In this document: one piece after another, positions 7,546-56,270 of the stretch
Layout of the letters: every line of letters begins with the position of its first letter
Position numbering within the stretch: the stretch's first letter is position 1
NCBI RefSeq assembly: GCF_964194155.1
Contig: NC_135901.1
Coordinates: 29,636,001 to 29,700,000, forward strand
Source of the DNA: Cetorhinus maximus
Taxonomy: Eukaryota
Direction of reading: 5' to 3'
Length of the DNA stretch: 64,000 nucleotides
Made by a program: the position numbers and the translations under genes
The notes under the pieces: model-generated
Seen by the model: only the letters and a program-made list of their open reading frames with translations
Told to the model about the DNA's origin: nothing
Databases searched by the model: none

Positions 7546-8153
7546 TCTGAGTCCAGGACATGAAGCATTGACCATGGTTCTGCCAATCAGCAGGAATCGG
7601 CACCTTCAGGAGAATTGGGAAAGTGTATATTAGGTACAGCAGAATGAGAATGGAAGAGGGGCCGTGGTGTGGGACGGAGATTTACAGCTTTTGGGAATGA
7701 GAGAGGAAAGAATGTTCCATGGAAACCAGAATTGTCTGTTCTGAATTTCTATCTTGTACTGACAGTGATGACTTTAGTAAACTCCTTTTACAGGATATTA
7801 GAAGGGGAGGATTTGCAGACAAATCTCAAACCAAACATCATGTCAAGATCTGACAGAGTCACATGATCCATTGGGAGCTGAATATCATTGGCCTTTGAAT
7901 CTAGAAGGAGAAATGTTTGTCTGTTCTGTCTGCTTCAACGGGTTCTAAACATCAGTGTGACTGGAAAAGCACCGAGACCCACACACCCGAGTGAGAGTGT
8001 TCCAGTGCACTGATTGTGGAAAGAGCTTTAACCAGTTACACAGCGTGAAAAAACATCACCATTCACAGCGGAGAAAGACTGCATGCGTGTTCCACGTGTG
8101 GACGAGTCTTCAACTGATCACCGAACATGGAGAGACACAAGGACACCCGCATC

Positions 8154-13282: not shown

Positions 13283-14189
13283 GGTGCAGGTGTCCTTGTG
13301 ACTCTGCAGGTTTGATGATCAGTTGATGCCTTGTCCACACACACAGAACACGTGTACAGTCTCTCCCCGCTGTGAATGGTGTGATATGTTTATCAGGCTG
13401 TGGAACTGGTTAAGGCTCTTTCAACGGTCACTGCACTGGAACACTCTCACTCGGGTGTGTGTGCTTTTCCAGTCATACTGATGTTTAAAACCTTTTGAAG
13501 CAGACAAACCTTTCTCTTTCTAGAAACAAAAGTCAATGATATTTAGGTCCTGCTAAATCGAGTGACTCTGTCAGGTTCTGGCCTGACATTTGGTTTGAGA
13601 TTTCTGTCTGCAAATCCTCAGCTTCCAATTTCCTGTAAAAGGTGTTTACAAAAGTCATCTCTGTCAGTGCAGGATAGAAATTCAGAACACACAATTCTAG
13701 TTTCTATAGGACATTCTTTCTTCTCTTCTTTCATTTGCCCACCGAATGGAAATAATGGCTGTATCACTGGTCTTAAAATGGGTGTAATCTACAGGAGTGT
13801 TTCACTGGGTTAAGATGCAGGCAATGCAAGGAAGAACATTGTTTAGGTAGCAAATGATCATGACCTGGAACCCGCTCCCTACGAGGGTGGTGGAATCAGA
13901 GAATTGAGTGGGCACTTGAAGCAAATAAACTTGCAGGTGAACGGGGATATAGAGGGGGAATGGGACTGACTGGATTGCTCTGCAGGGAATCGGCATGGAC
14001 TCAAGTTCCCACATGGACTTCTTCTGAGCTGCAATGACTATGACTGGAAATATGTAACGCAGCTACAGTAATATATTAGAAGACTACAAATAACAATCAA
14101 TGCACTTTATTACAGAACCATAAATAACATATCTAATATGTACCATATAACAACACTAGACATATCTCTGTCCTATATTCATTTACTTC

Positions 14190-15070
14190 CCCCTTAAACG
14201 TCAGCCATCTCCTGGGGAAACCACCCCTTTAATTGTGAACATTAGGAAAGGGACCATCCTTTTAGCCAGACAAATAAACGTGTCAAGCTGAGGGAGTAAA
14301 GGATGTCAATGTCTTTAAGAGAGAGAGAGAGAGAGACCTGGGCCAACCTTTCCAGAGTCTGCACCCTCCCTGGATTCACTTCCTTTCCCTTCAGTTCCTG
14401 CAAGTCAACAATTTCCCCCCAGAATGAGAAAAGAAATGGGAAGGGGGCGGGGAAATAAAGTGTTTTACTCAAAGATGTTCGACACAGGAGGAAGTTTTAG
14501 TTTGTGTGAAGCTCAATTTTCATTCACACAAATCTGATTGGCTGGAGGACTAGAGTCCTTCCGGTCCTCCAATTCACGCCATTGGTCAGTCTGCCGCATA
14601 AAGACAATGGAGCAGCGGAAGCCTTCGCAGATGCGGGACCCATTCTGACCCCAAGTTGAATGGAGTGGCTGGCCAATGGCAACGCCATTATCTGCACATG
14701 CGCAGCTTCCCCTCTCCCTCGGACATGCAGTCATGGGCCGCCCGCCCGTGCGGCGGGTAGAGCGGTTTCCCCAGCGCGGGGGGTTGTGGGTGCTACAGCC
14801 GCCATTACTCATACGGAGCCCAGTCCTCGAACTCCTGGAACTGGAATGGAAAGTGAGGGTTGCGGACGAAGTGGACCCCGCCCTGACACAAAGTACATGT
14901 GGGTAGTCACTGGATTTGATTGTGACTCCCCCTTACCAAAACAGTTTGTTAACTTCAGGTGTAAAGATTTAGACACCTGGGTGACATATTGGGGAGGTGA
15001 GTGTGAAACTGAACCCGAGAGTCAGCACTTTCAAGGGAGGAGAATTGGGGAAAAAACGGGAGGAAGATAG
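14190..15070. promoter_or_regulatory. Promoter/exon-1 module P3 (drives G3); exon-1 donor mutated GT to TT
   Basis: Module homology. actcaaagatg at ~14468 instead of actcacagatg. Confidence 0.75.
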
Positions 15071-15149
15071 TAGTATGAATTAGGGTTATACAATCAAAAT
15101 TGGGAGGGACTGCCTGGGGCACAGGGATTTATAGCTTGAGAGGTGGATC

Positions 15150-15440: not shown

Positions 15441-18400
15441 AGTAGGATGCCCGAGTTTTAGTTTGATGTTATGAACTTTTGTCGCTATCTGTTTCGAAAT
15501 GCTCCTTGGGACCTTGAACTTGAACCCACGATGGATGATGTCAGAGTTGAAGGCAATGCCGGGTTCAATTACATTGAAAATACAGCACACAAATAGGACG
15601 TTTTGTTACATTTTGTTACATTAAAGGCGCTATATAAATACAGGTTGTTGCTTTATTGAAGGCTGCCACTTGAACTTCCTCACTGCCCCGCAACTCCAAG
15701 AGCCCTATCCTGAACAGTTTGATCAGCCATCTCATTCTCATAGCATAGCCCAGCCCAGCCATTCTCAGTGAATCTCCTCTTCTCAGGCTCCCTTGTGACT
15801 CTGTCCTTGCTCTCTCACTGTGCGGAGTTCAGGTGTGAACAAAGCATTTTTGTCTTCAGATTTTCACTCTGAAAAGTTTAACGTATCAGGAGAAGATGAA
15901 TAGGCTGGGTCACTTCTCTCTTGGAAAGGCAAGGCTGAGGGCTAATGGAGGCTTTTAAAATTAGGAAAAGTTTTGACTCAGAGAATATTTCCACCTGTAG
16001 GGGGACGAGCAAAACTAGAGGCCATCAGCATAAGATAGTGACTGATAAATCTAATCGGGAATTCAGGAGAAACTTCTTTATCAGAGAGTGGTGAGAATGT
16101 GAAACTCGCTACCACAGGGAGTGGTGGAGGTGAATAACATAGATACATTTAAATGGAAGCTGGCATGGATTGGGTGGGCTGAATGGCCTGTTTCTGTGCT
16201 GTATATTCAATGTAAGCCTGGTATTGCCTTTAACACTGACATAGTCAATTCCGGGCTAAAGAGAAACAGTTTCTCTCACAGAAGAACATTTCATCTCATT
16301 GTTTCCAGCTATTGTCCAATCACTGCCTCTTGTCAGTCAAGTGTCCGAGGAGCCAAGGCATTCAATTCAACTACAAACATCTCAAGGGCAAACGGTCTGA
16401 AATTATTTAAATTTACTGGGTTGCAGTCCTTCCCTAAAACAATTATTATTTATCAGCCAGTCGTTTTCGAACTGGAGAGCCTGTTTCATCCAGGACAAAG
16501 CAGCCCACTTGATTGGCACCCCATCCATCAACCGAAACATTCACATCTTCCACACCACCAACGTACAGTGGCAGCAGTGTGTACTGCAGGACTGCACAAA
16601 ATGCACTGCAGGAACTCACCAAGTTTCCTTCGACAGCACCTTTCAAACCCACGATCTCTACCACCTAGGATGACAAGGGCAGCAGACATATGGGAAGCTC
16701 ACCACCTGGATGTTCCCCTCTGAGTGACACACCATCCTGACTTGGAACTATTTTGCTCAGGGTCTGGGTGTATGAAACCCCTTTCAGATCAAGATCTGTG
16801 TGCAGAGTCTGCGTGCAAACCTCTACAGTTCAGAGTTTGTGTGTACGCCAACCTCTTTAGCTTGGGGTCTGTGTGTACGCAAACCTCGTTAGATTAGAGT
16901 CTGTGCATACCCGAGCCCCTTTTAGATCAGTGTCCTTATGCTCAGCCCGTCCTGCTGCGTTCTGGGCAGGTTTGAATTTGACCATTTCCTGATCTTTAGC
17001 CACTATCCTCTGATTCCCAGTTATCTCTATATTTAGAAGTGTGACTGTTTGTGCAGTAAGATCCCGAACCTAAACTTGGGAGTCGTTTATATGTTCAAAA
17101 CACCTCATCTCAAAGTAAGTTTAAAAAATGTTGAAATGCTGAGGGGGTGGAAGATGTTGTATGATACAAGTTCTTCACACACAATGTACAGCACAGAATC
17201 AGGCCATTCAGTCCATCTCATTTATACTGTACACGAGACTCCTCCCACTTTACTTCATCAAGCCCCACCTTTCTTCTTCCTGAACATATCCGGATGCCCA
17301 TAAATGGATCTATGTTATTTGTCTCAGCCACTCTGTGTGGGAGCGAGTTCCACATTCCCACCACTCTCTGGGTGAAGAAGTTTATTTTCCAAACTTTCTT
17401 CTTGCCCCTGTTAATTCTTTCCCAGTTTCTCAGCTCGATCTGTTGACCCTGGAATGGGGAAAAAGACAGAGAAAGGATGAGCCAACTGAGACTTCACATC
17501 ACTTCCCCGAACACCAGGGCTCAGTCAGCCTCATACACTCGCCTCTGAGTCTGAAGGTCGTGGGTTCAAGTCCCCACTCCAGAGACTCGAGTCCCCCATA
17601 ATCCAGGGCTGACACTCTTTCAGTTTTCAGTTGCCAGGTTCCTAAACTCTGGAATTCCATCCCTTAACCCCTCCGCTTCTCTCTCCTTCTATAAGTCTCT
17701 GCTTAAAACCGACCTTTTCTTCTCTCAGTGACATCAAGGACTTGACAAGTTGTGTCCAAAACAAAGCTGATTGATTTGACATTTACCCAGAATATTAAAC
17801 TCCCCGGTGTGAGCTCACACATATGTAATCGAGCTCAATGAGGGAGGCACTCCCTTCCCCTTCTTCAATTTGGCCCACAGCATCATGACCTGCCCCACGG
17901 GTTGGGAAAGGAGGCAGATCCCAAATCCACCCCAGCCGGATCGATCCCCGTGCTGTTCACACCAATCTGATCAACACTCACCATTCAGATGACTGAGCCA
18001 ACCCCCCCACCGCCCCACGGCCAAGGAGTGGGAGTTGCTGCAGCAACATACACTGTTACACGCAAGTTCTGGTCTGGAGCAATGGACAGTTATCTATTAC
18101 CCTCTGTTATCTATTGCCCTCCCCAATATGTCATCCAGGCGTCAACATCTTTAATGAAGGAGAGTCATATTCAACCCGAAATGTTAACTCTATTTCTCTC
18201 TCCACAGATGACTCCAGACCTGCTGCGTGTCTCCAGCACTTTCTGTTTTAATTTTTGGCTAAGTCTCTTCACCTGAAGTTAACAAACTGTTTTGCTAACG
18301 GGGTGTCACAATCAAATCCAGTGACTACCAACATGTACTTTGTGTCAGGGCAGGGTCACTGCGCCTCCCAACCCACTTTCCATCCCAGTCCCAGGAGTTT

Positions 18401-18475
18401 GGAGACTGGGCTCCGGATGAGTAATGGCAGCCGCTGGTCCCACAATCCCCCGCGCTGGGGAAACAGCTCTATTCA

Positions 18476-19624
18476 GAGATAAAAACAAAAAACTGCGGAT
18501 GCTGGAAATCCAAAACAAAAACAGAAATACCTGGAAAAACTCAGCAGGTCTGGCAGCATCGGCGGAGAGTTTTTTTCGCCAACTCCAGCATGATGCCACA
18601 CCAAACACATCTTCCCTTCACCCCCCCTGGTGGCATTCCATAGGGATCGTTCCCTCCGTGACACCCTGGTCCACTCCTCCATCACCCCCTACTCCTCAAC
18701 CCCCACCTACGGCACCTCCCCATGCATACGCAAAATATGCAACACCTGTCCCTCCACTTCCTCTCTCCTCACCGATCAAGGGCCCAAACACTCCTTTCAA
18801 GTGAAGCAGCATTTCACTTGCATTTCCCCCAACTTAGTCTACTGCATTCATTGCTCCCAATGCGGTCTCCTCTACATTGGAGAGACCAAACTCAGACTGG
18901 GCGACTGCTTTGCAGAACACCTTCGGTCTGTCCGCAAGAGTGACCCAGACCTCCCTGTCGCTTGCCATTTTAACACTCCACCCTGCTCTCTTGCCCACAT
19001 GTCTGTCCTGAGCTTGCTGCATTGTTCCAGTGAAGCTCAACGCAAATTGGAGGAATAGCACCTCATCTTCCGACTAGGCACTTTACAGCCTTCCGGACTG
19101 AATATTGAGTTCAACAACTTTAGATCTTGAACTCCCTTCTCCATCCCCACCCCCTTTCCGTTTCTTCCCCCTCCCTTTTGTTTTTTCCAATAATTTATAT
19201 GGATTTTTCTTTTCCCACCTATTTCCATTATTTTTAAATCTATACCATTTATGCCCTTTTGGTCTTATTTCACCCCACCCCCACTAGAGCTATCTGTACC
19301 TTGAGTGTCCTGCCATCCATTCTTAATTAACACATTCTTTTAGATAATATCACCACCTTCAACACCTCTTTATTATTTTGTCTGTGACATCTTTTGATTA
19401 TCTGCTCCTATCACTGCTTGCTTGTCCCTACAACCACCCCCCCCCACCCCCAACTTCTCTCCCCCCACCACCCCACCTTAAACCAGCTTATATTTCACCC
19501 CTCTCCTATTTTTACTTAGTTCTGTTGAAGGGTCATGAGGACTCGAAACGTCAACTGTGCTCTTCTCCGCCGATGCTGCCAGATCTGCTGAGTTTTTCCA
19601 GGTGTTTCTGTTTTTGTTTTGATT
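18476..19624 (+). mobile_element. Penelope-like retroelement (family 1), 5'-truncated, GIY-YIG endonuclease remnant, inverted copy of its 3' end at the 5' side
   Basis: ORF 18630-19058 includes HFTCISPNLVYCIHCSQCGLLYIGETKLRLGDCFAEHLRSV...PVACHFN. 18510-18570 is the reverse complement of 19563-19620. tattc duplicated at both ends. Confidence 0.88.
19518..19556 (+). ncRNA. Minimal type-I hammerhead ribozyme motif at the Penelope 3' end
   Basis: AGTT-CTGTTGA-A-GGGTC-atgag-GACTC-GAAAC-GTC-AACT. Palindromic ACGT stem III, predicted GUC cleavage after 19552. Core is CUGUUGA rather than CUGAUGA. Confidence 0.65.
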
Positions 19625-20099
19625 TATTCGCCGCGCGGGCGGGCGGCCGGGGACTGCGCATGTCCAAGGGAGAGGGGGGAAGTGCGCATGTGCGGAGAAT
19701 GGATTTTTTTTTCCCATTGGCCAACCGCTCAGTTCGTGATCGGCCCCCCCCCACCCCCCGCCCCCTGCGCTCACGAAGGCGTCCACTGACCCATTGTCTT
19801 CATGCGGGAGATTGACCAATGGGAAGAGTTGGAGGACCGGAAGGACTCTGGTCTTCCAGCTAATCAGAGTGCGGGCTTGGTGTGAATGAAGATTGAGCTT
19901 CACACAGACTAAAATTTCTTCCTGTGTCCAACATCTGTGAGGAAAACACTTTCTTTTCTCCCCCTTTCCATTTCTTTTCTCATTCTGGGGGGAAATTTTT
20001 GACTTGCAGGAACTGAGGGGAAAGGAAGTGAATCCAGGGAGGGTGCAGACTCTGGAAATGTTGGCCCAGGTCTCTCGCTCTCTCTCTTAAAGACATTGA

Positions 20100-21180
20100 C
20101 ACTAAAAGACTAATAAGGAGGGAAAAATTAGAGTATGAGGGAATGCTAGCCAGAAATATAAAACCAGAAAGTACGAGTTTTTAAAAATAAATATTTAAAA
20201 ATGAAAAGAGTTAACAAAGTGAGCGTTGTTCATATGGAAAGTGAGTCTGGGGAATTGATAATGGAAAGTAAGGAGATGGCAGATGAATTGAACAGGTATT
20301 TTGCATCAGTTTTCACTAAAGAGGACACAAGTAACATCTCAAGCAGTTATAAACCAGTAAATGAAAGCGGAGAAGGAAATCAGGATAATTACAAGTGGTA
20401 CTGAGTAAATGGTCAGAGCTGTGGGCTGACAAGAGCCCAGGTCCCGATGGACTTCATCCAAGGGTCTTAAAAGAATTGTTTAGTGAGATAGTTTTTGCAT
20501 TGGTTTTAATTTTCCTAAACTCCCTAGATTCGGAGAAGGTCCCATTAGATTAGGCAAGGGAGGAGATAGCAGGGGCTCTGACCCAAATTTTTAATTCCTC
20601 TCTGGCCACGGGGGAGGTGCCAGAGGTCTAGAGAACAGCTAATGTGATTCCGCTATTTAAGAAGGGTTGTATAGAGAAGCCAGGGAACTACAGGCCAGTG
20701 AGTCTCACGTCAGTGGGAGGGAAACTATTGGAGAAAATTCTGAAGGAGAGAATTTATCTCCACTTGGTGAGGCAAGGTTTGATCAGGGATAGGCAGCATA
20801 GCTTTGTCAGAGGGAGGTTGTACCTAACAAATTTGATTGAATTTTTTGAGGAGGTGACCAGGTGTGTAGATGCTAGAGAAAGCTATTATTAAAGAAGTTA
20901 TAGCAGGGCACTTGGATAAGATCAAGGTCATCAGGAAGAGCCAACATGGTTTTGTGAAGGGAAATCATGTTTAACCAACTTACTAGAGTTCTTTGAGGAA
21001 GTAACATGTGCTGTGGATACAGGGGAACCAGTGGATGTGCTACACTTAGATTTCCAGAAGGCATTTGATAAAGTGACACATCAAAGTTTATTGCAGAACG
21101 TAAAAGCTCGTGGTATAGGGGTGACAAATTGGCATGGATAGAAGATTGGCTGGCTAACAGGAAGCAGAGAGTAGGCACAG
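20100..21180 (+). mobile_element. CR1 LINE ORF2 (RT) fragments, composite
   Basis: MADELNRYFASVFT, PGNYRPVSLTSVGGKLLE, CLTNLLEFFEEVT, LDFQKAFDKV motifs. Confidence 0.88.
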
Positions 21181-30152: not shown

Positions 30153-31729
30153 GGTGCAGGTGTCCTTGTGTCTCTCCAGTTCCAATGATTAGTTGAAACC
30201 TCGTCCTCACGCAGAACATATATAATGTCTCCCCTCACTGTGAATGGTGTAATGTTTTTTCAGTCTGTGTAACTGGTGAAAGCTCTTTCCACAGTCAGTG
30301 CACCAGAACACTCTCACTCGGGTGTGTGGGTCTCAGTGCTTTTTTGGTCAAAATGTTGTTTAAAATTTCTCGAAGCAGGCAGAACAGACAAACACTTCTT
30401 CTAGATTTAAAGGCCAATGATATTCAGGTCGCGATGAACCGAGTGACTCTGTCAGATCTTGATGTAAAGTTTGTTTTAAGATTTGCAAATCCTCCCCTTC
30501 TAATATCCTGTAAAAGGAGTTTACTCTCAGTACAGGATAGACATTCAGAACAGGCAATTCTAGTTTCTAAGGAACGTTCTTTCCTCTCTCGTTCCCCAAA
30601 AACTGTAAATCTGCTTCACACACACTCTCCCTCCATTCTCACTCTGCTGTATCTAACATACACCCAGCAGGGCTGCACTAAAAATGTGTGTAATATACAG
30701 TGTTAGGGTCGAAACAGTGAACTGTCAAGGAGTGTTTCAGTTGGTAATTGTAGCTTAATTGACAAGTATCTCACTGGGTGTATCTAAAGGGGAAACAGGT
30801 GAGATAATGTGTGTGTAGAATTGTGCGTGTGCTGAAATAAAACTCTGCTTGAAGAAGCAAAGTCCTGGTTTCTGTGTTTATTATCAAGCAGCCATCGGAG
30901 CTTAACATACAGTGCTCCATTACTTGATTAGGGACAGATGGGTCTGTTAGGGAGAACTTTATTTCGCCAGTGAGTGCTGATGACCTGGATCTCACTGTCT
31001 ACGAGGGTGGTGGGAGCAGAGACCGTCAATAATTTCAAAACAAAATTGGATGAACAGACGAAGGAAATAATCTTGCAGGGGAACAGGGATATAGAGGGGG
31101 AATGGGACTGAGTGAATTGCTCTGCAGAGAGTCGGCATGGGCTCAAGTTGCAGAATGGACTCCTTCTGTGCTGTAATGATTCTATGACTGGATATTCATA
31201 ACGTAGCTACAGTACTGTAGGAACTGGGAATAGGAATGATAGTAAATAAACTCTTTTACAGAACCAGAATTAATATATTTAAAATGTTTCCCATCACAGC
31301 ATTAGACATATCTATGTCCTATATTATTGTATTGTCCAGGGGGCAGAACTCTTACAAAATAAAATAAGGAACACGTCAGCCATGGGGCTGGAGGCATGGC
31401 TGGGGTTGTGGTGCTGGTGACCAAGAGAGCAGTTTGTTGGGGGTTGCGGATTTCAATATGAGAAGGGCTGGGGAGAAGGGGTCTTGAGATAATAATAGTG
31501 GGAGGGGTGGAGGTTAAAGTTAACCAAAACTTACAACTTATTTTGTTCGGTCAGAATATCATCATCTCCCTGCTGGCCAACTCACTCACTTGCCGTCTCA
31601 CTTAAACTCAGTCTGGAGACTCCCGGGGTCAGTTTCCCACCAGCTGTCCTAGAAATACGGGGCAAAAGGCAAAATAAGGGGCAATCTCTTAAAATACAGG
31701 ACAGTTAATTACCCTGAAATTGTCCCCTT

Positions 31730-32640
31730 AAATGTCAGCCATCTCCTGGGGAAACCACCCCTTAAATTGTGAACATTAGGAAAGAGACCATCCTTTTAGC
31801 CAGACAAATAAATGTGTCAAGCTGAGGGAACAAAGGATGTCAATGTCTTTAAGAGAGAGAGAGAGAGACCTGGGCCAACCTTTCCAGAGTCTGCACCCTC
31901 CCTGGATTCAATTCCTTTCCCTTCAGTTCCTGCAAGTCAACAATTTCCCCCCAGAATGAGAAAAGAAATGGAAAGGGGGATAAAAGAAAGTGTTTTACTC
32001 ACAGATGTTGGACACAGGAGAAAGTTTTAGTCTGTGTGAAGCTCAATCTTCATTCACACAAAGCTCACGCACTGTTTGGCTGGAGGACCAGAGTCCTTCC
32101 GGTCCTCCAACTCTTCCCAATGGTCAATCTCCAGCATGAGGACAATGGAGCAGCGGAAGCCGTCGTGGGCGCCGGGGACCCTCGTGACGGATGAGGGCTT
32201 GGTCAATGGGCAATCCGCCTCTGCACATGCGCAGCTTCCCCTCTCCCTCGGACTTGCGCAGCTTCCCCTCTCCTTCGGACATGCGCAGCTGCCCCTCTCC
32301 CTCGGACATGCGCAGTCATAGGCCGCCCGCCAGCGCGGCGGACAGAGCGGTTTCTCCAGCGCGGGGTATTGTGGGAGCTTCTGCCGCCATTACTCATCCG
32401 GAGCCCAGTCCCCAAACTCCTGGGACTGGGATGGAAAGTGGGGGTGGGGGACGCAGTGACCCCGCCCTGTCACAAAGTACATGGAGGTAGTCACTGGATT
32501 TGATTGTGACATCCTCTTAGCAACACAGTTTGTTAACTTCAGGTGTAAAAATTTAGACACCTGGGTGACATATTGGGGAGGGCAATAGGTGAGTGTGAAA
32601 CTGAACCCGAGAGTCAGCACCTTAAAGGAGGAGAACTGGG
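31730..32640. promoter_or_regulatory. Promoter/exon-1 module P5 (drives G5), with a triplicated 27-bp NRF1-site unit
   Basis: Module homology. catgcgcagcttcccctctccctcgga three times at 32226-32306. Divergent donor caatag|gtgagt at 32589. Confidence 0.8.
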
Positions 32641-33049
32641 GGAAAAGCCGGAGGAGGATAGTAGCATCAATTAGGGTTACAATGAATAGGGAGGAAGGAG
32701 TGTGAGGGGGGCAAAGATTTATAGTTAGAGAAGGAGAAGGATTCTGCTGTTATTGCTGCTGTTTTCCAGATTCAGGAGCAAACCATGACCGTTGGGGTTT
32801 ATTTCTGCTCATGTTAATAACCCCTGTAACTGAGCTGGAGTTTAATGTTCTGAATGTAAGTGGAATTAATCAGCTTTGGATTGAACACCCTGTGTCATAT
32901 CCTTGATGTGGGATAGGTTGGGACTGCTGATTTGCTGGGTGAGCAGTGTCTCTTTATGAACTGCTGTTTGTGATCTCTCCTCATTCCTTCAGGTACTCTC
33001 AGCTGAAATTATTTTCCAATAAAACAGTTCACTTTCAGCACCACATCCT

Positions 33050-33295
33050 AAGGTTAGGTTTAGCGTTAAGTTCAGGTTAGGTTTAAGTTTAGGGTTATGG
33101 TTAGGCTTAGGGTTAGGACTATGGCTGGGTTTAGGGTTATGATTAGGTTTAGCGTTAGGTTTAGAGTTATGGTTAACGTTAGTGTTATGGGTAGGTTCAG
33201 GGTTAGGTTTAGGTTTAGGGTTACCGTTTGGGTTATGGTTAGGTTCTGGGTTAGGTTTAGGTTTAGGATTAGGGTTAGTGTTAGTGTTAGGTTAA
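33050..33295 (+). repeat. Degenerate telomere-like array (TTAGGG/TTAGGT/TTATGG), G-rich on the plus strand
   Basis: Direct inspection. Confidence 0.9.
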
Positions 33296-35489
33296 GGACA
33301 TATGCTTCAAGCAACAGATCAAGCATGGATGTAAAAGATTCTCCAGCTCTCTCCTTACCTCTGTCCAACTTGTGGACAGTTCTCACTCAGTATTATTTCT
33401 CCCAAGCCCTTAATTGTCCTAATCCAAATTTTTTATCACTTTTACTTCAGTTTTACTCACTTTGTGACCATGACCAGTGTGTTTAATTCTATCCTGACTA
33501 TTTTAAAGTCAATTTCTCTCTGGAGTGTGTGTCAGTGCCTTGATGATGTCAAAATGTTCTCATTCCTCTGGCCACATTAACCATTTGACGTCATGCTGTT
33601 TGTCAAGTAGCTGTGTATGTTTGGGACCCATCCCTCAGTGCATTTCACCAGGAATTTCCCAGTATTATTTGGTTACCATGTAATGATTCACATCTGCACA
33701 CTATAGCACGTTACACATTCTTGCCTTTCAGGCCATCTTATCAAAAGGTCAAAGTGGATGTCTGTCTCGAGATCATCACTTATCTCTCCCAACATGGTCC
33801 TGATATTTCAGGCAGTGGCCAGGCTCTCAAATGTGCTTTACTTTTAAAAAATAAGTTCACAGGCAAAGGATACAAATATAGGCAACAGAAAGTGATCAGC
33901 TTATTCATTTCACCTATAATTTCACTGGAATGTAGGCGGATACCAAGTTGATATATTCCACTGAACGAAACCCAAGGTGAGTTATTCTGATTACTTTACC
34001 GTCCAGTACAATATTTTTAGAATATCTTGAAACAGAAATTAAACATTCCCATTGCATTTCAGTTATTAACATATTCTGTTTGTATGTCCTTTATTTTAAA
34101 TGACAGACCGGGGTTATTCTCCTTGGAGCAAAGGAGGTTGAGGGGAGATTTGATGGAGGTGTACAAGATTATGACAGGTTTAGATAAGGTGGACAAAGAA
34201 AAGCTGTTCCCGTTAGCTGATGGCTCAAGACGAGGGGACACAGAGTGATGTTTCTCGGCAGGAGATGCAGGGAGGAGGTGAGGAAGCACATTTCTACACA
34301 GTGAGTGGTAATGAGCTGGAACTCACTGTCTGTGAGGATTGAGGATGGTGCAATTGGAGAAGATGACTGATTTCAAAGGGAAATTGGATGGGCACCTGCA
34401 AGGAATAAACTTTCACGGATAGGGTAATAGAATGAGGCAATTGGGCTGACTGCTTTCCTCTACAGAGTTGGCATTCACTCGATGGGCTGAATGGCCTATT
34501 CCTCTCCCCTCATGACTTTGTGATCAAAAAAGCGAAATTTCAGCTGCTCCAGTCTCTCTAACTAACTGAAGTCCCTCATCCCTGGTGCCATTCTTGTAAA
34601 TCTCTTCTGCACCCTCTCGAAGAACTTCATATCTTTTCCAAAGTGTGGAGCCCAGATATAGGGTTCCATTCTAGAGAGGTAGAATTGAAAAGCAGGGAGG
34701 TTATGTTCAACTTGTTTCGAACCATGGTTAGACTACACTGGGAGTACTGTCAACATTTGTCATCTCCATTTAGAAAAAGGAAATAGAGGCATTGGAGAAG
34801 GGGCAACAAAGATTCACAAGTGTAATCCCAGAACTGAGAGCATTTAACCCTCAGGAAAGGCTGGGGCTGCTTTTCTCTAGAAAAGAGAAGACTGAAGGGT
34901 GACCTGATGGAAGTCCTTAATATTATGAAGAGGTTCAATAATCCAATAGGGATTTCATGAGAAACCTCTTTACCCAGCGAGTGGTGAGAACGTGGAACTC
35001 ACTACCACAGCGAGTGATTGAGGTGAATAGCTTGAATACATTTAAGGGGAAGCTAGATACATACATGAGGGAGAAAGGAATAGAAGGATATTCTGATGGG
35101 GGGAGATGAAGAGGGGTGGGTGGAGGCTCTTGCGTAGCATAAATACTGACAAAGACCAATTGAGCCGACTGGCCTGGCCCTGTGCTGTAGACTCAATGGA
35201 ACAGAGACAAATATATTTATTTTAGATCTACCTGTGGTGGTAGGAAAAACACTATGTACTGTCCAGGATAAAATAAATGTACTTCATCAGCTTTTGTGGG
35301 TCATTTCAGTGGAAATGTCCACTTCCAGACTCAAAGAACATCAGCCACTGGAAGCAAAGTCATGAGACCAGCCAGTCCAGCAGAAAGAAACCCTCCGACC
35401 CTCCCACTTTGCCAACTGTCTGAATGAACATGCTTCAGACCTGGATGTAATTAACAGCAGCAGTAACAGCAGAATCCAACCCCTGGAAT

Positions 35490-36156
35490 CACTTTCACCT
35501 GGTGTCTCAGCAGGTTGGATAAATGAGTAAATCCCTTCCCACAACAGAGCAGGTGAACGGCATCTCCCCAGTGTGAACTCGCTGGTGTCTCAGCAGGCCG
35601 GGTAAAATCATTGAATCCCTTCCCACACTCAGCAGCTGACAGGTCTCTCCTCAGTGTGAATGCGCTGGTGGCTCTCCAGTTCCTGAGAGCTTTTGAAGCC
35701 ACTTCCACAGTCTGATCATTTAAACGGTCTCTCATTCGTGTGAGTGACATGGTGTCGTAGGAGGTGGGAAAATTGCTTGAATCCCATTGCACACTCAGAG
35801 CAGGTGAATGGCCTTTTCCCGGTCTGAACTCATTGCTGTGTCAGTAGGTGGGATGAATCTCTGAATCCCTTCCCACACTCAGAGCAGGTGAATGGCCTCT
35901 CCCCGCTGTGAACTCGCTGGTGTGTCAGCAGGATGGATAACTGAGTGAATCCCTTCCCACACGCAGAGCAGATGAATGGCCACTCCCCAGAGTGAACTTG
36001 ACAGTGCCTCCACAGGGCAGATGAATCACTGAATCCTTTCCCACACTCAGAGCAGATGACCGGCCTGTTCCCAGTGTGACTACGTCGATGAGTTTCCAGC
36101 TTGAATGGGTACTTGAATCCCTTCCCACTGTCCCCACATGTCCACGGTTTCTCCAT
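35490..36156 (-). pseudogene. ZNF pseudogene G6 (stop at 35830, frameshifts downstream)
   Basis: ORF track 35830..36192. First finger lacks a Cys. Decayed fingers to ~35490, then the conserved 3' UTR. Paralogue of G11. Confidence 0.75.
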
Positions 36157-36992
36157 GGTGCGCCTGTCCTTGTGTCTTTCAAGGTTTGACAATCAGATGT
36201 AGCATTGTTTGCACACAGAACATGTGTACAGTCTCTTCCCGCTGGGAATGGTGAGGTTTTTTCAGGCTGTGTAACTGGTTAAAGCTCTTTCCACAGTCAG
36301 TGCACTGGAAACACTCTCACTCAGGTGTGTGTGCCTCTCGGTGCTTTTCCAGTCACACTGGTGTTTAAAACCGTTCAAAGCGGACAGAGCAGACAAACAT
36401 TTCCCCTTCGAGATTCAAAGGCTGATGATGTTTTCATTCCCCAAAAGCTGTAAATCTCCAACCCACACACTCTCCCTCCATTCTCACTCTGCTGTACCTC
36501 ACATAACCCCTCCCAATTCTCCGAAAGGTGCTGATTCATGCTGATCGACAGATCAATGCTGATTGCTTGTTCCCCCTGGACACAGAGATCTGAAAATCTT
36601 CCTGCATCATCATTGGGACAGTATCACTTGGTTAAGACACAGGGGCGATGTGAAGAAGCAGGTGGTCATGACCTTGAACTCGCGGCCTACGAGGATGGTG
36701 GAAGCAGAGACAATCAATGATTTCAAAATCAAACTGGGTGGACACTTGAAGGAAATAAACTTGCAGGGGATTAGGGATATAGAGGGGCAATGGGACTGAC
36801 TGGATCGCTCTGCAGAGAGTCAGCATGGATTCAGTTGCCAAATGGACTCCTTCTATGCCGTAATGACTCTGACTGAAAATATATAACCTAGTTACAGTAC
36901 TATATTACAAGATTAGAAATAATAATAAAATGTATCTTATTACTGAACCATAAATAATATATCTAATATGTACCATATAACATTAGCCATAT

Positions 36993-37122: not shown

Positions 37123-37159
37123 TAGACATTTCTCTGTCCTACATTAATTTACTGTCCCC

Positions 37160-37945
37160 TTAAATGTCAGCCATCTCCTGGGGAAACCACCCCTTTCATT
37201 GTCAACATTAGGAAAGAGACCATCCTTTTAGCCAGACAAATAAATGTGTCAAGCTGAGCGAGCAAAGGATGTCAATGTCTTTAAGAGAGAGAGAGAGACT
37301 TGGGCCAACCTTTCCAGAGTCTGCACCCTCCCTGGATTCACTTCCTTTCCCTTCAGTTCCTGCAAGTCAACAATTTGCCCCCAGAATGAGAAAAGAAATG
37401 GAAAGGGGGAGAAAAGAAAGTGTTTTACTCACAGATGTTGGACACAGGAGGAAGTTTTAGTCTGTGTGAAGCTCAATCTTCATTCACACAAAGCCCGCGC
37501 TCTGATTGGCTGGAAGACCAGAGTCCTTCCGGTCCTCCAATTCTTCCCACTGGTCGATTCCTCAGCATGAAGAGAATGGGGAAATTGGAGGAAGAGGGGT
37601 GGGGGGGTGCGGGAAGGCGGCTCTGCACCGCACATGCGCAGCTTCCCCTCTCCTTGGACTTGCGCAGACCCGGGCCGCCCACCCGCGCGGCGGATAGAGC
37701 GGTGTCCTCAGCGCGGGGCATTGTGGGATCTACGGCCGCCATTACTTATCCGGAGCCCATTCTCCAAACTCCTGGGACTGGGATGGAAAGTGGGGGTGGG
37801 GGGCGCAGTGACCCCACCCTGACACAAAGTACATGTGGGTAGTTGCTGGATTTGATCGTGATGCTCCCTTCGCAAAGCAGTTTGTTAACTTCAGGTGTGA
37901 AGGTTTAGACACCTGGGTGACATACTGAGCAGGGCAACAGGTGAA
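37160..37945. promoter_or_regulatory. Bidirectional promoter module P6 between G6 (-) and G7 (+)
   Basis: Staf/ZNF143-consensus TCCCACAATGCCCCGCG (rc ~37712-37729), gcacatgcgca, gccgccatt. Donors on both strands (~37431 minus, 37941 plus). Confidence 0.8.
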
Positions 37946-38267
37946 TTAGGGTTACAATCAATCGGGAGGAGGGACTGTATGGGGTGTGGGGAAGGTGAAT
38001 TTTAACAGCACAGAAGGAGGCTATTCGGCCCATCGTGTCTGCACCAGCTCTCCAAATGAGTATCATGACCTAGTGCCATTGCTCAGCCTTTTCCCAGTAC
38101 CCCTGCGCATTGTTACAATCCATAAGGAGTGAATGTTGTTGTGGTGTTGGGGGAAGTGCAGAGATTTTTAGTTTGAGAGGGAGAAGGATGTCCTGTGAGA
38201 ACTGGAATCGACAGTCCTGGTTTTCCACCCTTTACTTCTGTAATCGTTTCTAATCTCCGTTTACAAG

Positions 38268-39150
38268 GCATTAATAGGGAGGATTTGTAGACAGGAAATG
38301 CAAACCAAACATCATGTCACGATCTGATAGCATCGCTCAACTTATCAGGGCCTGACTATTATCAGCCTTTGAATGCAGAACGAAAAATTATTTGTCTATC
38401 TACTGAAAAGTTTTCAGCTATCAGTGTGAAGCTTCAACTGTCACCCGACAGGAGGTGAACTATATAAGCATGGCAGTGGGAGAGCTTTGAGAAAGCAAAC
38501 CAAGCTGGAAACTCAACCGTGCAGTCACAGTGGGGAGAAGCCATTCACCTGCTCCATGTGTGGGAAGGGATTCGTTTGCTCATGCACCCTGCTTAATCAC
38601 TGACTAGTTCACACTGTGGAGAGGCCCTTTGCTCGCTCCCAGTGTGTGAAGAGATTCAGGGATTCCTCTCACCTGCTGGGACACCACGAGAGGCCAGTCA
38701 CCTGCTCTGAATGTTGGAAGGGATTCACTCACTCATTGAGCTTGATAACATATCAATGAGCTCACTCTGGAGAGAGACCAGTCACCTGATCTAACTCGGA
38801 AGGGATTCACTCAGTCAGCCAAGCTGCTGGCACACCAGTGAATTCACATTGGGGAGAGACATTTAAATGTTCCATGTGTGGGAAGGAATTCAGCCAATCC
38901 TACAGCCTGTTGACACACCAGGAAGTTCACACCAGGGAAAGGCTGTTTGAAAGTTCACTCGCTCGTCCCATCTCCTGACACACCAGCGAGTTCATGTTTG
39001 ACTGCAGGGGTTGGATTCTGCTGTTATTGCTGCTGCTAATCACATCCAGGACTGAACCATGTTCATTCAGTTGGGGTCTGTTTCTGCTGATGTGAATAAT
39101 CCCTGTAACTGGGCTGGAGTTTAATATTCTGGGTAAATGACAAATAAATC
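38268..39150 (+). pseudogene. ZNF pseudogene G7 (divergent partner of G6) with acceptor, fossil acidic leader, about 6 broken fingers and 3' UTR
   Basis: tttacaag|gcattaatagggaggatttgtagacaggaaatgcaaaccaaacatc is homologous to the exon-2 start of the other genes. Many stops and indels. aataaa at ~39143. Confidence 0.75.
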
Positions 39151-39934
39151 AGTTTTGTTTTGGACACACAGTTTGTCAAGTCCTGGTGTCACTGAGATAA
39201 GAAAAGATGGCTTTTCAGCAGAGTCTAAAAGGAGGGGATAGAAGTGAAGGGGTTAAGGGAGGGAATTCCAGAATTTAGGAACCTGCCAGCTAAAGTCTGA
39301 AAGAGTGTGAGCCCTGGATTATGGGGGACTCGAATCTCTGGAGTGGGGACTTGAACCCACGACCTTCAGACTCAGAGGCGGGAGTATGGGACGGACTGAG
39401 CCCTGCTGTTCGGGGAAGTGATGTGAAGTCTCAGTTGCCTCATCCTTTCTCTATCCTTTGCCCCTTTCCAGGATCAGCAGATCGAGCTGAGAACCTGAGC
39501 AACAATTAAAAGGGGCAAGAAAAGAGTTAAGAGAATAAACTTCTTCACCCAGAGAGTGGTGAGAATGAGAATCTCGCTCCCACGGGAGGTGGGTGAGGTG
39601 AATAGGATAGATGTCTGTAAGGGGAAGCTGGATAAACACATGAAGGAGAAAGAAACAGAAGTGGTGGGACTTGATGAAGTAAATTGGGAGGAGGCTCCCC
39701 ATTTTCAACATTTTTATTTTAGGTGAGGAGTTTTGAACATTTGAACCACTTTCAAGGTTACGTTCCAGCTGTTAATGTGCAAACAGGACATGGATATTGG
39801 AATAGCTGGAAATCAGAGGATAGTAGGTAAAGAGCAGGAAACGGCCAAGATAAACCCTACCCAGAATGCAGCAGGATGGGCTGAGTTAGGAGATGCTGAG
39901 CTCAAGGGAGTTTGAAGACCCGGCAATAAAAGAG

Positions 39935-40189: not shown

Positions 40190-41062
40190 CCTAACCCTAA
40201 CCCTAATCCCTAACCCCTAACCTTAACCCTAAACCTAACCATACCCCTAAACCTAACAATACCCGTAAGCCTAAACACAACCGTAAACCTAACCCTAAAC
40301 TTAACCCTAAACCTAACCATAACCTTAAACCTAACCCTAACCCTAAACCTAACCCTAACCATAAACCTAAACATAACCCTAAACCTAACCTTAACCATAA
40401 ACCTAATTCCTAACAATAAACCAAACTCTAAACTTAACTCTAACCCCAAACCCTCACTATAAACCTAACCATAACCCAAAACCTAACCGTAATCCTAACC
40501 CTATCCACAACCCTGAACCTAACCCGAAAGGTAACCATAACCATATACCTAACCAAAACCCTAAACCTAGCCATGACCGAGCCCTAACCCTAAACCTAAC
40601 CATAACCCTAAACCTAACCATAACCCTAAACCTAACCATGAATCAAACCATAACACCAACCCTAACCCTAAACCGAGCCTAACTGTAACGCTAATTCTAA
40701 CCGTAAACCTAACCCTAACCCTAGCCCTAAACCAAACCATAACCCTAAACCTAACCATGAATGTAACCATAACCCCAACCCTAACCCTAAACCTAACACT
40801 AAACCTAACCGTAACCCTAAATCTAACCATAACCCTAACCCTAAACCTAACCATAGCCCTAAACCTAACCATAAAGCTAACCATAACCCTACCCGTAACG
40901 ATAACCCTAAACACAACCCTACCCCTAACCTTAACCCTAAACCTAGCCATAGCCCTAAACCTTACCATAACCCTAAACCTAACTCTAAACCTAACCATAA
41001 TGCCTAACCTAACCATAACACTAACCCGAACCCTAACACTAAACCCAACACTAACCCTAACC
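40190..41062 (-). repeat. Degenerate telomere-like array (CCCTAA/ACCTAA/CCATAA), C-rich on the plus strand, ~870 bp
   Basis: Direct inspection. Frequent 18-bp unit aaccctaaacctaaccat. Confidence 0.92.
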
Positions 41063-42179
41063 GGGAATATACGCTAACCTGTAAATAAACCTAATGCTAA
41101 CTGGGGATCCCAGAGCTTCTCCTGAATCACGTGGTGTCTTGTAGATTGTGGACAGACTTTGCAAATTCGGCACCTTCCAAATCCGTGACCCCTCCCACCT
41201 AGAAGGACAAGGGCAGCAGATGCATGGGAACACCACCACCTGCAAGTTCCCCTCCAAGCCACTCACCATCCAGACTCGGAACCATATCACAATTCCTTCA
41301 CTGTCACCGGGTCAAAACCCTGGAACACCCTTCCCAATATTTCCCCACATTATGCTCCATCTGCAAATGTTCTCCCACTCACTTAACCTACCTGTATCTT
41401 TTTGCAGACTCTCTAGCTCCTCTGGACAATTTACAAGGTCCCTCAAACAGCAACGTGGTAATGACCAGATGATAAGTTTTTGTGATGTTGATTGAGGGAT
41501 AAATGTTGACCGGGACACCGAAGAGAACTGCCCTGCTCTTCTTCCAGAATAATGAAGTGGGATATTTTTCATCCACCCGAGCAGGCAAATGAGGCCTCGG
41601 TGTAGCATCTCACTTGAAAGACGGCACATCCAACACGGCAGCACTCCCTTAGTACTGCACTGGAGGGTCAAATGTGAGTTTTGTGCTCAATTCCTGATTG
41701 GGGGCATGAGCCCAGAAGCTTGGGACTTAGAGGCATGAGTGTTACCCACTGAGCCCCGACTGACAATGAGGTGAAGAGGAGTGGGAGGAGGCATGTGTGG
41801 AGAACAAAAAACATCACAGATCAGGTGACCCGATTGGTTTGGTCCTTTGATGTTAATTCTATGTAATTTCAATAAGTAGAACATTTCAGACACGGATTAG
41901 TTGATTTCACACGAAAGATTTGTTTGGGTGAGATGCTGAAAGGGACCTGTTTTATTGTAAAATAATGTCTGCTGAGAGTCTCTGAATGAATGAGGAGAGA
42001 TCACACGCAGCAGTTCTTAAAGAGACACTGCTCATTCAGCAAATCAGCAATCCCAATTTATCCCACATCAAGGACATGACATAGGGTGTTCAATCCAAAG
42101 CTGATTCATTCCACTTACATCCAGAATAATAAACTCCAGGTCAGTTACAGGGGTCCTTAACATGAGCAGAAGTAAACCC

Positions 42180-43020
42180 CCTAATTCCCCTCCCCTGAAG
42201 GTGCTGACTCTAGGCCTCAGTTTCACATTCACCCGTTGCCCTCCCCGATCTGTCACCCAGGTGTCTGAATCTTTACACCTGAAGTTAACAAACTGTTTTG
42301 CTAAGCGGGCGTCACAATCAAATCCACTGACTACTCACATGTACTTTGTGTCAGGGCGGGGTCACTGTGCCCCGCCACCTCACTTTCCATCCCAGTCCCA
42401 GGAGTTTGGAGATTGGGCTCCAGAAGAGTAATGGCGGCCGCAGCTCCCACAATCGCCCGCGTTGGGGAAACCATTCTATCCGCCGCGCGGGCAGGCGGCC
42501 CGGGACTGCGCATGTGCCGAGTCTGCCGCACAGATGCGCATGTGCGGCTCCTGCCAGGTGGTCGCGCGAAGGCTTTTCCCGTGTCCGCGCGCCTGGCCTG
42601 CAGACTGGGACCCGAGGACGTCACCGCGGAGCAGAGTGATTCCTATTGGCTGATTCAGTCAGGGTTCCATTGTGGACGTCACAATGCGGAAGTTGGACAA
42701 TGAGCTTCAGACTAAAACTTCCTCCTGTGTCCAACATCTGTGAGGAAATCAATGTTTCCCCCTTTCCATTTCTTTTCTCATTCTGGGGGGAAATTGTTGA
42801 CTTGTAGGAACTGAAGGGAAAAGAAGTGAATCCAGGGAGGGTGCAGACTCTGGAAAGGTTGGCCCAGGTTTCTCTCTCTGTCTCTCTCTTAAAGGCATTG
42901 ACATCCTTTGCTCCCTCAGATTGACACGTTTATTTGTCTGGCTAAAAGGATGATCTCTTTCCTAATGTTCACAATTAAAGGGGTGGTTTCCCCAGGAAAT
43001 GGTTGACATTGAAGGGGACA
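42180..43020. promoter_or_regulatory. Promoter/exon-1 module P7, variant B (drives G8)
   Basis: Module homology with a different proximal part (gacgtcac, attggctgattc). ATG at 42684, donor at 42740. Confidence 0.8.
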
Positions 43021-51438: not shown

Positions 51439-51599
51439 GATCTCCAATTAGTGTGGCTTTATACTCTTTTGATTAAACAAATTAAACTAAATTAACAAAT
51501 CAGGAACAAAGTGAAAAGTAGCCCCTTAAAGGGATACTGCAAAAAGAAAAACTAATCTTAAAGGAAACTTACAGCCTCAAATTAAAATGTGATTCGAGG

Positions 51600-51842
51600 G
51601 GTCAATACAGCACCCCAGTCCCCACTGTGACCACCGGGCACGGAAGGCCTCGATGGTGCCGGCAGACACCGCGTCTCCCTCTCCAGGGACACCCGGCCGT
51701 GAACGTAGCCGCGGAAAAGGGGCAGACAGGCCGGACGACCCCCTCGATCGCCCACTGCCTGGACCTGTTGATGGCCACCTTGGCCAGGCCCAGCAGCAGG
51801 CTTATGAGGAGATCCTCCTCCCTCCTCACACCCCTCCACACA
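51600..51842 (-). mobile_element. Tx1/L1-like LINE ORF2 C-terminal fragment
   Basis: EEDLLISLLLGLAKVAINRSRQWA...GRVSLERE peptide. Confidence 0.55.
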
Positions 51843-51965
51843 GCGCGAGTGTTGTTTCATACGTGCTCAAGTAAGCATCTAATCAATGCCCTCCACCTGT
51901 ATATACTTATCCTCAATTGATACAATTAACAGCCATAGTCTGAACAGAAGGCTCTCTGATCGGGG

Positions 51966-53930: not shown

Positions 53931-55398
53931 TTTAAAGGAGAATTAGCATTTGTTTTGAAAATGCTTCTGATTTTTTTAGACCCCAAGGTGATCAATGTTG
54001 GGTCCCTGGTATCTGCCCGGGTGGGGGGAGGGGCACCAGACCTGGCCTCAGTGCCACAGGAGGCAAAGCCGGGGTTCCTGCTCCTCACGGTGATCCCCCG
54101 GCTGGGAGGGGCCTTAGGTCTTATTCATCAAGAATGTGCCCCCCTCACGTCGCTCCCGGAGGGTCAATCGGCAAATGGTGTAGCCAACGTGCAGCCAGTG
54201 CCAGGGTGTGAAGGGTGGACACTGAGAGGCTGTTTCCCCCGGCTGGGGAATCTAGAACACGGGGGCACAGTCTCAGGATAAGGGGCCGATCATTTCAGAC
54301 TGAGATGAGGAGTAATTTCTTCACTCAGAGGCTTGTGAATTTTTGGAATTCTCTTATCCATCTGGTTCACCAATACCTTTCAGGGAAGGAAATCTGCTGC
54401 CCTTACCTGGTCTGACCTACATGTGAATCTGGACCCACAGTGATGTGGCTGACCCTTAACTGCCCTCGTAAATGGCCGAGCAAGACACTCAGTTGAACCA
54501 AACCGCGACAGAAAAGTCGGACCTGATGGACTGCAGAGGTTCACAAGGTGGCTCAGCCCCAACTTTTCAAGGGCAACTAGGGAGGGGCAACAACTATTGG
54601 CCTTGCCTGTCACGCCTACATTACATGAAATGATAATAAAAATCCCAGCATGTTGTGGGTGCCCAGTCACTGAGTATCTTCAAGAGAGAGAATGATAGCT
54701 TTTTGAATATTATAGGATGAACGGATTTGGGGACAGTGCAGGTCAGGCATGATCTTACTGAATGACAAAATAGGCTTGAGGGGCAGAATGGCTTCTTCCT
54801 GCTCCTATTTCTTATGTTCTTATGTTACCAGGATCATCAGGAGAGAATGGGAATAATTAACACATCGAGTAATCATTGAGGACAGAAGGAGGGAGGGGAG
54901 TGAGTGTGGGTGGGTGGATGGGTGGGGAGGATTTACAGATGAGATGGGCGAACAATTGAATCCAATCAAGGATTATCTGTTCTGAATTTCTAATCTGTAC
55001 CCACAGTGATGTCTTTTGTAAACTCCTTTTACAGGACATTAGAAGGGGAGGATTCACAGACAGAACTTACAAATGAAACGTGACGTCAGGATCTGATAGA
55101 ATCACTCGATTCATCAGGAGCTGAATATCATCGGCCTTTGAATCTAGAAGGAGAAATTTTTGTCTGTTCTGCCTCTTTCAAAAGATTTTAAACATAAGTG
55201 TCACTGAAAAAGCATTGAGACACACACACCTGAGTGGAGAGTATTCCAGTACACTGACTGTGGAAAGAGCTTTAACCAGTTACACAGACTGAAAAACATC
55301 ACACCATTCACAGCGGAGAGAGACCGCTCATGCATTCGCTGTGAGGACGAGGCATGAACTGATCGTCGAATCTGGAGAGACACAAGGATACTCACACC

Positions 55399-55989: not shown

Positions 55990-56270
55990 TTCCAGGGGTT
56001 GGATTCTGCTGTTTTTGCTGCTGTTAATCACATCCAGGACTGAACCATGTTCATTCTGACAGTTGGTGAAGTGGGAGGGTCGGAGGGTTTCTTTCTGCCG
56101 GACTGGCCGGTCTCACGACTTTGCTTTCAGTGGCTGATACTCTTTGAGCCTGGGAGTGCACATTTCCACTGAAATGATCCACAAAAGCTGATGAAAGACA
56201 ATTATTTTATCCTGGATAGTAAATAGTGTTTTTCCTACCACTACAGGTAGATTTCCAATAAATACATCTG
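55990..56270 (+). other. Conserved ZNF 3' UTR element (also after G2, G3, G4, G5, G6, G8, G11)
   Basis: ggggttggattctgctg...cacatccaggactgaaccatgttcattctgac...gggagtgcacatttccactgaaatgatccacaaaagctgatgaa...caggtagat..aataaa. Confidence 0.85.

Follow-up and report, generated by a model that had tools for sequence, protein, structure and literature searches.

A tandem zinc-finger gene cluster of Cetorhinus maximus and a CpG-island promoter module that likely descends from a head-to-head gene pair

The 64,000-nucleotide stretch of Cetorhinus maximus DNA analysed here (64 kb; the window) holds, in tandem, a cluster of short elasmobranch C2H2 zinc-finger (ZNF) genes that lack KRAB. Eleven genes or gene relics (G1–G11) are interspersed with LINE, SINE-like and telomere-like repeats; one reverse transcriptase fragment was confirmed by Pfam. 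The ORFs start at a good ATG immediately 5' of the first intact finger. Full-length ORFs of the family are found in G3 (140 aa), G5 (252 aa) and G10 (196 aa), and the remaining ORFs stop early. A Pfam search of the G5 and G10 ORFs returned neither KRAB nor any other effector domain, which agrees with a remark in a whale shark paper (PMC8455134) that KRAB families are absent in cartilaginous fishes. Nine protein matches were obtained for G5, eight of them named, the best being shark and ray ZNFs (53–75% identity). Elasmobranch 'zinc finger protein 239-like' and uncharacterised ZNF models (P0001–P0007 and P0009; 53–75% identity to G5) share the finger style and the start segment with this family, a likeness known from proteins alone.

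The genes facing the left side of the promoter module described below are referred to as left-type. In these genes the ZNF exon opens with ~360 nt (e.g., 55035–55398 and 7794–8153) in which a degenerate linker is accompanied by two dead fingers whose stops are shared among copies; this part apparently now forms a 5'UTR ahead of the downstream ATG. Exon 1, candidate exon 2 and the linker would share a reading frame, which may be a trace of a lost N-terminal peptide or of a uORF. A CpG-rich patch outside the modules, downstream of G9 (51501–51950), gave no Pfam match.

The promoter module is a CpG island represented in the window by ten left arms and eight right arms. All ten left arms face a left-type ZNF exon located ~1–2.5 kb away in the matching orientation. 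Complete modules (left arm, core and right arm) are present at P1–P7 and P9, with an identity of 79–93% in blocks. The original prediction placed the module at nine loci. Eight of these were recovered, and the ninth, P8 (53223–53930, no single strand), consists of two left arms back to back and has no right arm.

P1 (module 1597–2560, whole feature 1597–3867, plus strand) carries a repeat inserted in the right exon and has lost donor 2, the rightward splice donor; a G7-type finger scrap and a right-type 3'UTR lie at ~3020–3396 (plus strand). P4 (20101–19625 and 18472–18101, feature 17235–20101, minus strand) shares the right-exon insertion and the loss of donor 2 and retains a G7-type scrap at ~17737–17840. 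This module is split by a 1.1-kb insertion (18477–19620) located between the NRF1-like sites and the Staf site. An ORF of the insertion (18594–19058) resembles, by eye, a GIY-YIG/Penelope fragment and gave no Pfam match. P2 (5450–6476, minus strand) drives G2; its donor 2 is intact at 5632 and its right intron is truncated before any acceptor. P3 (module 14157–15135, feature 14157–15140, plus strand) serves G3, with donor 1 mutated, donor 2 intact at 14997 and the right intron truncated. P5 (module 31721–32742, feature 31721–32909, plus strand) drives the intact 252-aa ORF of G5; both donors are intact, and the part of the right gene lying between its intron and its 3'UTR is deleted. P6 (module 37123–37990, plus strand) serves G6 on the left and the G7 relic on the right. 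P7 (module 43020–42181, feature 42071–43020, minus strand) has a left promoter of a second type (type B), the donor 2 form CGG/GTGAAT and a right-type 3'UTR scrap. P9 (62851–63836, plus strand) serves G11, and its donor 2 is intact at 63629. The right tails of P5 and P6 are followed directly downstream by degenerate telomere-like (TAACCC-type) arrays (32989–33400 and 40190–41100).

Progressively smaller ZNF scraps had been predicted beside P1, P4, P5 and P7 (3040–3370, 17745–17840, 32740–32890 and 42090–42180). The positions proved right and the scraps are homologous to the 3' end of G7, but they do not form a graded series. They are the products of separate deletions in two sub-lineages, the second of which comprises P5 and P7, whose deletions differ from those of P1 and P4. 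Trees of the right arm, the left arm and the left gene contained no supported fork.

The anatomy of the module is described here for P6. Its left-type gene, G6 (35173–36432, minus strand), is damaged: the first finger is broken, and a 108-aa ORF starts at the ATG at 36156. The acceptor of G6 has been deleted (36432–36590), the acceptor region of G10 finding no match there and the similarity beginning inside the exon. The left arm (minus strand) includes a conserved block 3' of candidate exon 2 (37153–37309, mean pairwise difference 7.8%), a candidate second leader exon of 50 nt with a YAG acceptor and a weak AAG/GT donor (37310–37359), a short intron (37360–37432) running from donor 1 (TCT/GTGAGT) and the putative exon 1 of the left gene (37433–37500), placed by sequence plus a weak step in contig depth and with an approximate start site. 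The left promoter of type A (37505–37532, minus strand) contains CCAAT at 37505–37509 and an ETS site at 37526–37532, both conserved in position. It is followed by two NRF1-like sites of a 27-bp unit (37630–37667, plus strand), a Staf/ZNF143-like 18-mer (37712–37729, minus strand) and the YY1-like sequence GCCGCCAT (37735–37742, plus strand).

The right arm (37746–37940, plus strand) would be the 5' exon of the dead right-type gene. It ends at donor 2 (CAG/GTGAAT, GT at 37941), a weaker form created by deletion. The right intron (37941–38267, plus strand) has been shortened by a P6-specific deletion and holds a SINE-like repeat (~37997–38106); its 3' part is homologous to the acceptor region of left-type genes. 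The acceptor of G7 is degraded at 38266–38267, where the homologous CAG reads CAA and an AAG follows one base later. G7 itself (38268–39000, plus strand) is a right-type ZNF pseudogene with about six finger remnants, stops and frameshifts, lacking the start-codon segment of left-type genes. The right-type 3'UTR (39001–39184, plus strand) has AATAAA at 39143–39148. A distance of 509 bp separates donor 1 from donor 2, and each donor leads from a predicted start site to a ZNF exon, the two exons lying on opposite strands. The second donor had been expected to lead to an acceptor at ~38268 and a full ZNF relic; position and homology bear this out, but the acceptor is degraded and the donor is of the weaker form. 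With the G6 acceptor lost and G7 a pseudogene, both P6 genes are damaged.

The eight cores have a GC content of 0.57–0.61 and a CpG observed/expected ratio of 0.64–0.86, compared with 0.35 for the window, and are thus CpG islands. Mirror composition (a plus strand rich in G+T on the right and in C+A on the left) was measured in five of the eight modules, where G+T is 0.46–0.49 on the left and 0.48–0.55 on the right, a small difference. The sites that we assign by consensus sequence to NRF1, ETS/GABPA, YY1 and CCAAT factors are conserved in position across copies, which are not independent of each other. The predicted list of shared motifs holds for three of them by window counts: the NRF1-like 11-mer occurs nine times, always in modules (0.02 expected), the YY1-like 8-mer six times, always in modules (1.35 expected), and the ETS 7-mer ten times, eight in modules and two elsewhere (5.9 expected). 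It does not hold for CCAAT, the count of which is at background (160 seen versus 134 expected). The module counts result from duplication of one ancestor, not from independent gains. The 27-bp NRF1-like unit has been tandemly amplified to four copies at P5 (32218–32315), where the left gene G5 is intact. The Staf/ZNF143-like site was judged by a published core rule (CCCR at positions 3–6 and C at 12, PMC3082894), which is short and carries no matrix score. All eight right arms have CCCR and 7/8 have C12, so that the site stands as predicted; the exact 17-mer, however, occurs once, at P6.

Promoter type B has two TGACGTC CRE-like sites and CCAAT. At P7 (42550–42720) and in the left half of P8 (53400–53560) it stands upstream of donor 1 in the place of type A. 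At P7 the left promoter alone was swapped, while the core and the right arm were retained, which suggests that the promoter halves are separable. The two genes of the ancestral pair may have shared one promoter or had two that abutted.

Human bidirectional CpG-island promoters carry ZNF143/Staf, GABPA, NRF1, NF-Y and YY1 sites according to Anno et al. (2011, PMC3082894), and the original claim that this motif set is typical of vertebrate bidirectional promoters is thereby upheld. The shark module is similar to those promoters in its motif set, CpG island, predicted starts well under 1 kb apart and divergent gene pair. Unlike the promoters described in that text, it is a many-copy paralogous unit of a ZNF cluster with one partner dead, and the RRACTACA motif found beside the Staf site there is not evident in it. 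Judged by these features, the module would be a human-type ZNF143/GABPA/NRF1/YY1 bidirectional promoter, a class that is itself already well known.

The introns between the left arm and the left ZNF exon are homologous among copies (18% different). The duplicated unit was consequently the gene with its promoter, not a promoter inserted beside genes. It could be supposed instead that the module represents a mobile element, a dispersed transposon or solo LTR, inserted beside ZNF genes and supplying promoter motifs, since copies of the left arm differ far less from one another than the ZNF exons do and a 23-nt inverted match brackets P5 (31618–31640, in the left intron and also at P7, versus 32593–32615 at the start of the right intron). 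Contig data could be read in the same way. Contigs of four of 24 runs were examined. Three are RNA-labelled, each with a different species label that is not that of the window, and the fourth is probably DNA; the contigs are unstranded and the matches are dominated by finger paralogues. Tens of distinct contigs carry the left arm in the DNA run. Nevertheless, a transposon origin is extremely improbable: in 10/10 cases the left arm has a ZNF gene in the matching orientation as its neighbour, the flanking introns are homologous, the module ends are ragged, and neither an Rfam or tRNA match nor, by Pfam, any coding capacity was found. Common terminal repeats were looked for at P5, P6 and P9 and not found. 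The 23-nt match was rejected as terminal inverted repeats, being unseen at P6 and P9 and lying in the flank shared by P5 and P7. Within the window, then, the module showed none of the hallmarks of a transposable element (terminal repeats, target-site duplications, unrelated insertion sites). The distinct contigs, counted in tens for each arm (82 with a letter other than that of P6 at 37515, 37 at 37719), indicate that the family extends well beyond the window.

A head-to-head origin of the module is supported by both sides of the island. At P6 the right intron runs unbroken into sequence homologous to the acceptor region and the first exon part of left-type genes (E = 8e-18 to G2). At P9, a locus that the original prediction did not adduce, it reaches the sequence upstream of a ZNF acceptor (E = 3e-11 to G2 and G11) and breaks off ~19 nt before the AG. 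Between core and acceptor there is no room for another promoter. The right-type 3'UTR was found five times, always to the right of a module (5/5), and the left-type 3'UTR behind eight left genes and never to the right of a module. G7 is an outgroup to the left genes in the acceptor region, with 35–43% difference compared with 21–22% among left genes. The intron homology at P6 and P9, together with the two 3'UTR types, implies that two old subfamilies faced away from one island. The module thus likely descends from a head-to-head pair of a left-type and a right-type ZNF gene, as originally proposed, and its homologous left introns and the missing transposon hallmarks point the same way. The anatomy and the homology of this pair are observed directly. 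The duplication unit would have been a divergent left-type/right-type pair with first exons ~250 bp apart, placed on one TATA-less CpG island with ETS, CCAAT, NRF1, ZNF143 and YY1 sites; the binding of these factors and the start sites are predictions from sequence.

The right arm might never have been the 5' end of G7, if G7's own promoter was deleted and the end of its intron became fused to the flank of the left promoter. A comparable fusion exists at P8, where a left arm is joined straight to the inside of the G9 exon; the resemblance between the right intron and left introns weakens upstream, from ~150 nt onwards; and no RNA with a joint between donor 2 and the acceptor was seen in contigs, among the 15 of 331 joints listed. 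Such a fusion is nonetheless very unlikely, as a strong donor stands exactly at the start of the intron homology, where ~0.01 would be expected per 300 nt (from 4.15 per window; a post hoc figure), and likeness to G1/G2 intron sequence is seen by eye close to the donor. Equivocal evidence of the same tendency comes from a horn shark ZNF model (P0001), the N-terminus of which (residues 59–94) resembles the rightward translation of the NRF1–Staf–YY1 core. Against the plus strand of the Staf–YY1 core it gives a 17-residue ungapped match with nine identical residues (E = 0.002 for one comparison), and the segment matches all eight right-arm cores, with 0/300 shuffles reaching its score. P0001 was picked by eye from nine proteins, a control segment taken from a low-complexity protein region reached equally high scores (42.7/44.6 versus 44.9/42.3), and 2/108 non-module tiles reached 86 compared with 75–106 for modules with P0001. 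With controls thus equivocal, the horn shark gene may read through a similar core rightward into a ZNF exon.

The right partner of the ancestral pair died, as had been proposed. One finger carries the same three lesions in G7 and in the scraps of P1 and P4: a His-to-Tyr change of its first zinc-binding His, a stop and a Val-to-Ala change. The combination occurs three times in the window, in G7 and these two scraps only, compared with 34 intact instances. The stop alone recurs three times elsewhere, so that it is the combination which counts. The shared lesions place the death of the partner before P1, P4 and P6 diverged from each other, and what G7 preserves is therefore a gene that was dead by then. 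This dating covers P1/P4/P6, the finger having been lost at P2, P3, P5, P7 and P9. The common right-exon insertion of P1 and P4, both devoid of donor 2, was noted above. The original acceptor survives at P6 alone, in degraded form. AATAAA is intact in 2/5 right-type tails, and the idea that deletions spared the poly(A) signal was rejected on this count.

Splice donors pointing both ways were found in most copies. Donor 1 has GT in 8/10 left arms (TT at P3 and GC at P9), and donor 2 has GT in 6/8 right arms; the exact predicted form caatag/gtgagt occurs once, at P5. The claim that the partner's exon 1 and donor are kept in most copies is correct for the donor count, but neutral drift predicts the same: at 6–10% change per lineage the probability of at least six of eight donor-2 GTs is 0.82–0.94. 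In P1/P4/P6, where the compared pairs are not independent, the right exon shows 60/477 differences (12.6%) versus 183/1313 (13.9%) in the dead downstream flank (Fisher p = 0.48), and the left arm 40/573 (p = 9e-6). Conservation of donor 2 and the right exon above neutral was thus not found. The right exon, with a mean difference of 12.4%, has diverged less than the left introns (18%; 199/1143 and p = 0.017 for P1/P4/P6), which could result from weak constraint, conversion or CpG-island protection.

Selection on the partner's exon 1 and donor after its death, either for spliced divergent non-coding RNAs or because the donor tunes promoter output, would accord with this lower divergence. It would also accord with donor 2 being a strong AG/GTGAGT in four copies, which make up four of the six such sites in the window, and with pyrimidine-rich AG sites less than 1 kb from donor 2 in 4/6 donor-bearing copies, candidate acceptors counted with no chance control. 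In human reporter assays, ZNF143 sites suffice by themselves for output in both directions (PMC3082894). Right-arm sequence is present in RNA-labelled contigs, with the NRF1–Staf core thinnest, as two outward starts would give; this is a weak hint. Such selection is nevertheless unlikely. Neutral retention suffices for donor 2, which was lost in P1 and P4 after the insertion into the exon, and the acceptors and poly(A) signals of the right side are mostly gone.

No joint at donor 1 or donor 2 was seen in contigs among the 15 of 331 joints, 24 of 2326 loose ends and 32 of 34818 pieces listed, a search that had no positive control. One RNA-labelled contig (record 4 of run X1) covers 37757–37944 and extends four bases into the right intron; it stops where P6's own deletion ends the match and so fits an unspliced molecule or DNA. 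Right-arm coverage is low in all three RNA-labelled runs. Relative to the DNA run, depth is 0.24/0.14/0.07 in the left exon-1 bin, 0.0002–0.046 in right-arm bins and 0.007–0.035 in repeat bins, a hint of left-biased output, as contig depth cannot rank parts and the runs bear other species labels. Contigs with the right-type 3'UTR are abundant in RNA-labelled runs. There are thus probably intact, expressed right-type genes at other loci, which may belong to pairs that are still complete. A changed letter at 37359 is found in run X8, in 19 contigs that make up 97% of the depth, and is absent from the three remaining runs, suggesting lineage-specific homogenisation or expansion of the family. The proposal that the modules may now produce spliced divergent non-coding RNAs is not supported, given neutral donor retention, the state of the right-hand signals, a partner broken before at least three of the copies arose and the joints listed, although some divergent RNA may exist. 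The module looks less like an origin of new RNAs than like an ordinary two-way promoter whose partner gene on one side is dead.

The most uniform parts of the unit are the left leader region (37153–37500, 3–9% difference) and the left 3'UTR (8.3%, e.g., 55990–56240), compared with 16–17% in the promoter, 18% in the introns and 16–24% in the fingers. The 50-nt block 37310–37359 (3.1%) is the most conserved piece of the whole unit. A consensus RNA structure of the left arm had 0/100 pairs with a compensatory change, and no structured RNA is therefore claimed. Coding by the left arm or the degenerate linker was also rejected: protein searches were empty (11 and 19 candidates, none scored, which is weak evidence), and Pfam found nothing. 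Selection on RNA elements or gene conversion may have kept the left leader and left 3'UTR uniform.

P8 differs from the other loci. Around one NRF1-like site it has a type B arm towards G9 (minus strand) and a type A arm towards G10 (plus strand), with donors 450 bp apart. The type B arm is the one fused directly to the inside of the G9 exon, and G9 has lost its acceptor; the G10 gene is intact, although its candidate exon 2 is cut. P8 is a second, younger head-to-head ZNF pair rebuilt from two left arms, not the cassette of P1–P7 and P9. Mammalian ZNF clusters hold many head-to-head pairs. P8 may be a better place to look for live two-way transcription, despite the damage to the G9 acceptor and G10 exon 2.

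Taken together, the history of the divergent pair is best read as follows. The right gene was pseudogenised early, at least before the P1/P4/P6 split, as the shared lesions show, and the unit went on being copied along with the left gene, as the homologous left introns show; separate deletions and repeat insertions then eroded the right gene. The right 5' arm would hitch-hike because it abuts, and partly is, the promoter. The module today is most likely mainly the promoter of the left gene, and any rightward output probably amounts to what promoters of this kind commonly give, short divergent transcripts that are not under selection. Ectopic exchange between copies would shuffle parts (promoter B at P7 and P8, the P8 inversion) and may help to keep the left leader uniform. 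To this reading as a whole, an ancestral divergent pair amplified, its right partner dead early and the module now mainly a left-gene promoter, we assign a probability of roughly two in three.

Promoter-derived novel non-coding transcripts (PINTs) of bidirectional promoters (Gotea et al. 2013, PMC3583895) offer a comparison. Common features are a coding anchor, a possible, poorly conserved spliced divergent partner and repeats piling up on the upstream side. PINTs arise from previously untranscribed DNA, and <5% hold duplicated gene sequence, whereas any divergent RNA of the shark module would descend from a dead paralogue. Tandem ZNF birth-and-death is described for tetrapods (mammalian KRAB-ZNF) and for cyprinid FiNZ-ZNF genes in Wells et al. 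(2023, PMC10547256), the main text of which does not mention sharks. The shark locus is similar to those clusters in its tandem C2H2 arrays, many pseudogenes and subfamilies sharing promoter architecture. Unlike the KRAB-ZNF and FiNZ-ZNF genes of that text, the shark genes have neither KRAB nor a recognised effector domain, their ORFs beginning at the fingers. No description of a shark ZNF promoter cassette was found in the literature searched, the scope of which did not extend to subscription journals and supplements.

Shark ZNF clusters are essentially undescribed in the literature searched, and the window records both the amplification and the decay of a divergent pair, in which the promoter carries with it the 5' end of the dead partner. 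The eight right arms, each decayed to its own degree, and the rebuilt pair at P8 provide a natural series for following the fate of the second direction after gene death. The lead most worth following is why the left leader and left 3'UTR are so uniform. A broader and speculative reading, which we consider improbable at present, is that an elasmobranch-wide ZNF family expands as a head-to-head cassette, with a core conserved to horn sharks and intact pairs elsewhere. The donor arms of dead partners would be recycled into spliced divergent RNAs, and the homogenised 350-nt leader and 250-nt 3'UTR would give one post-transcriptional programme to fast-diversifying, effector-less finger arrays. If this were true, the promoter and the UTRs, not the protein, would be the conserved identity of the family.
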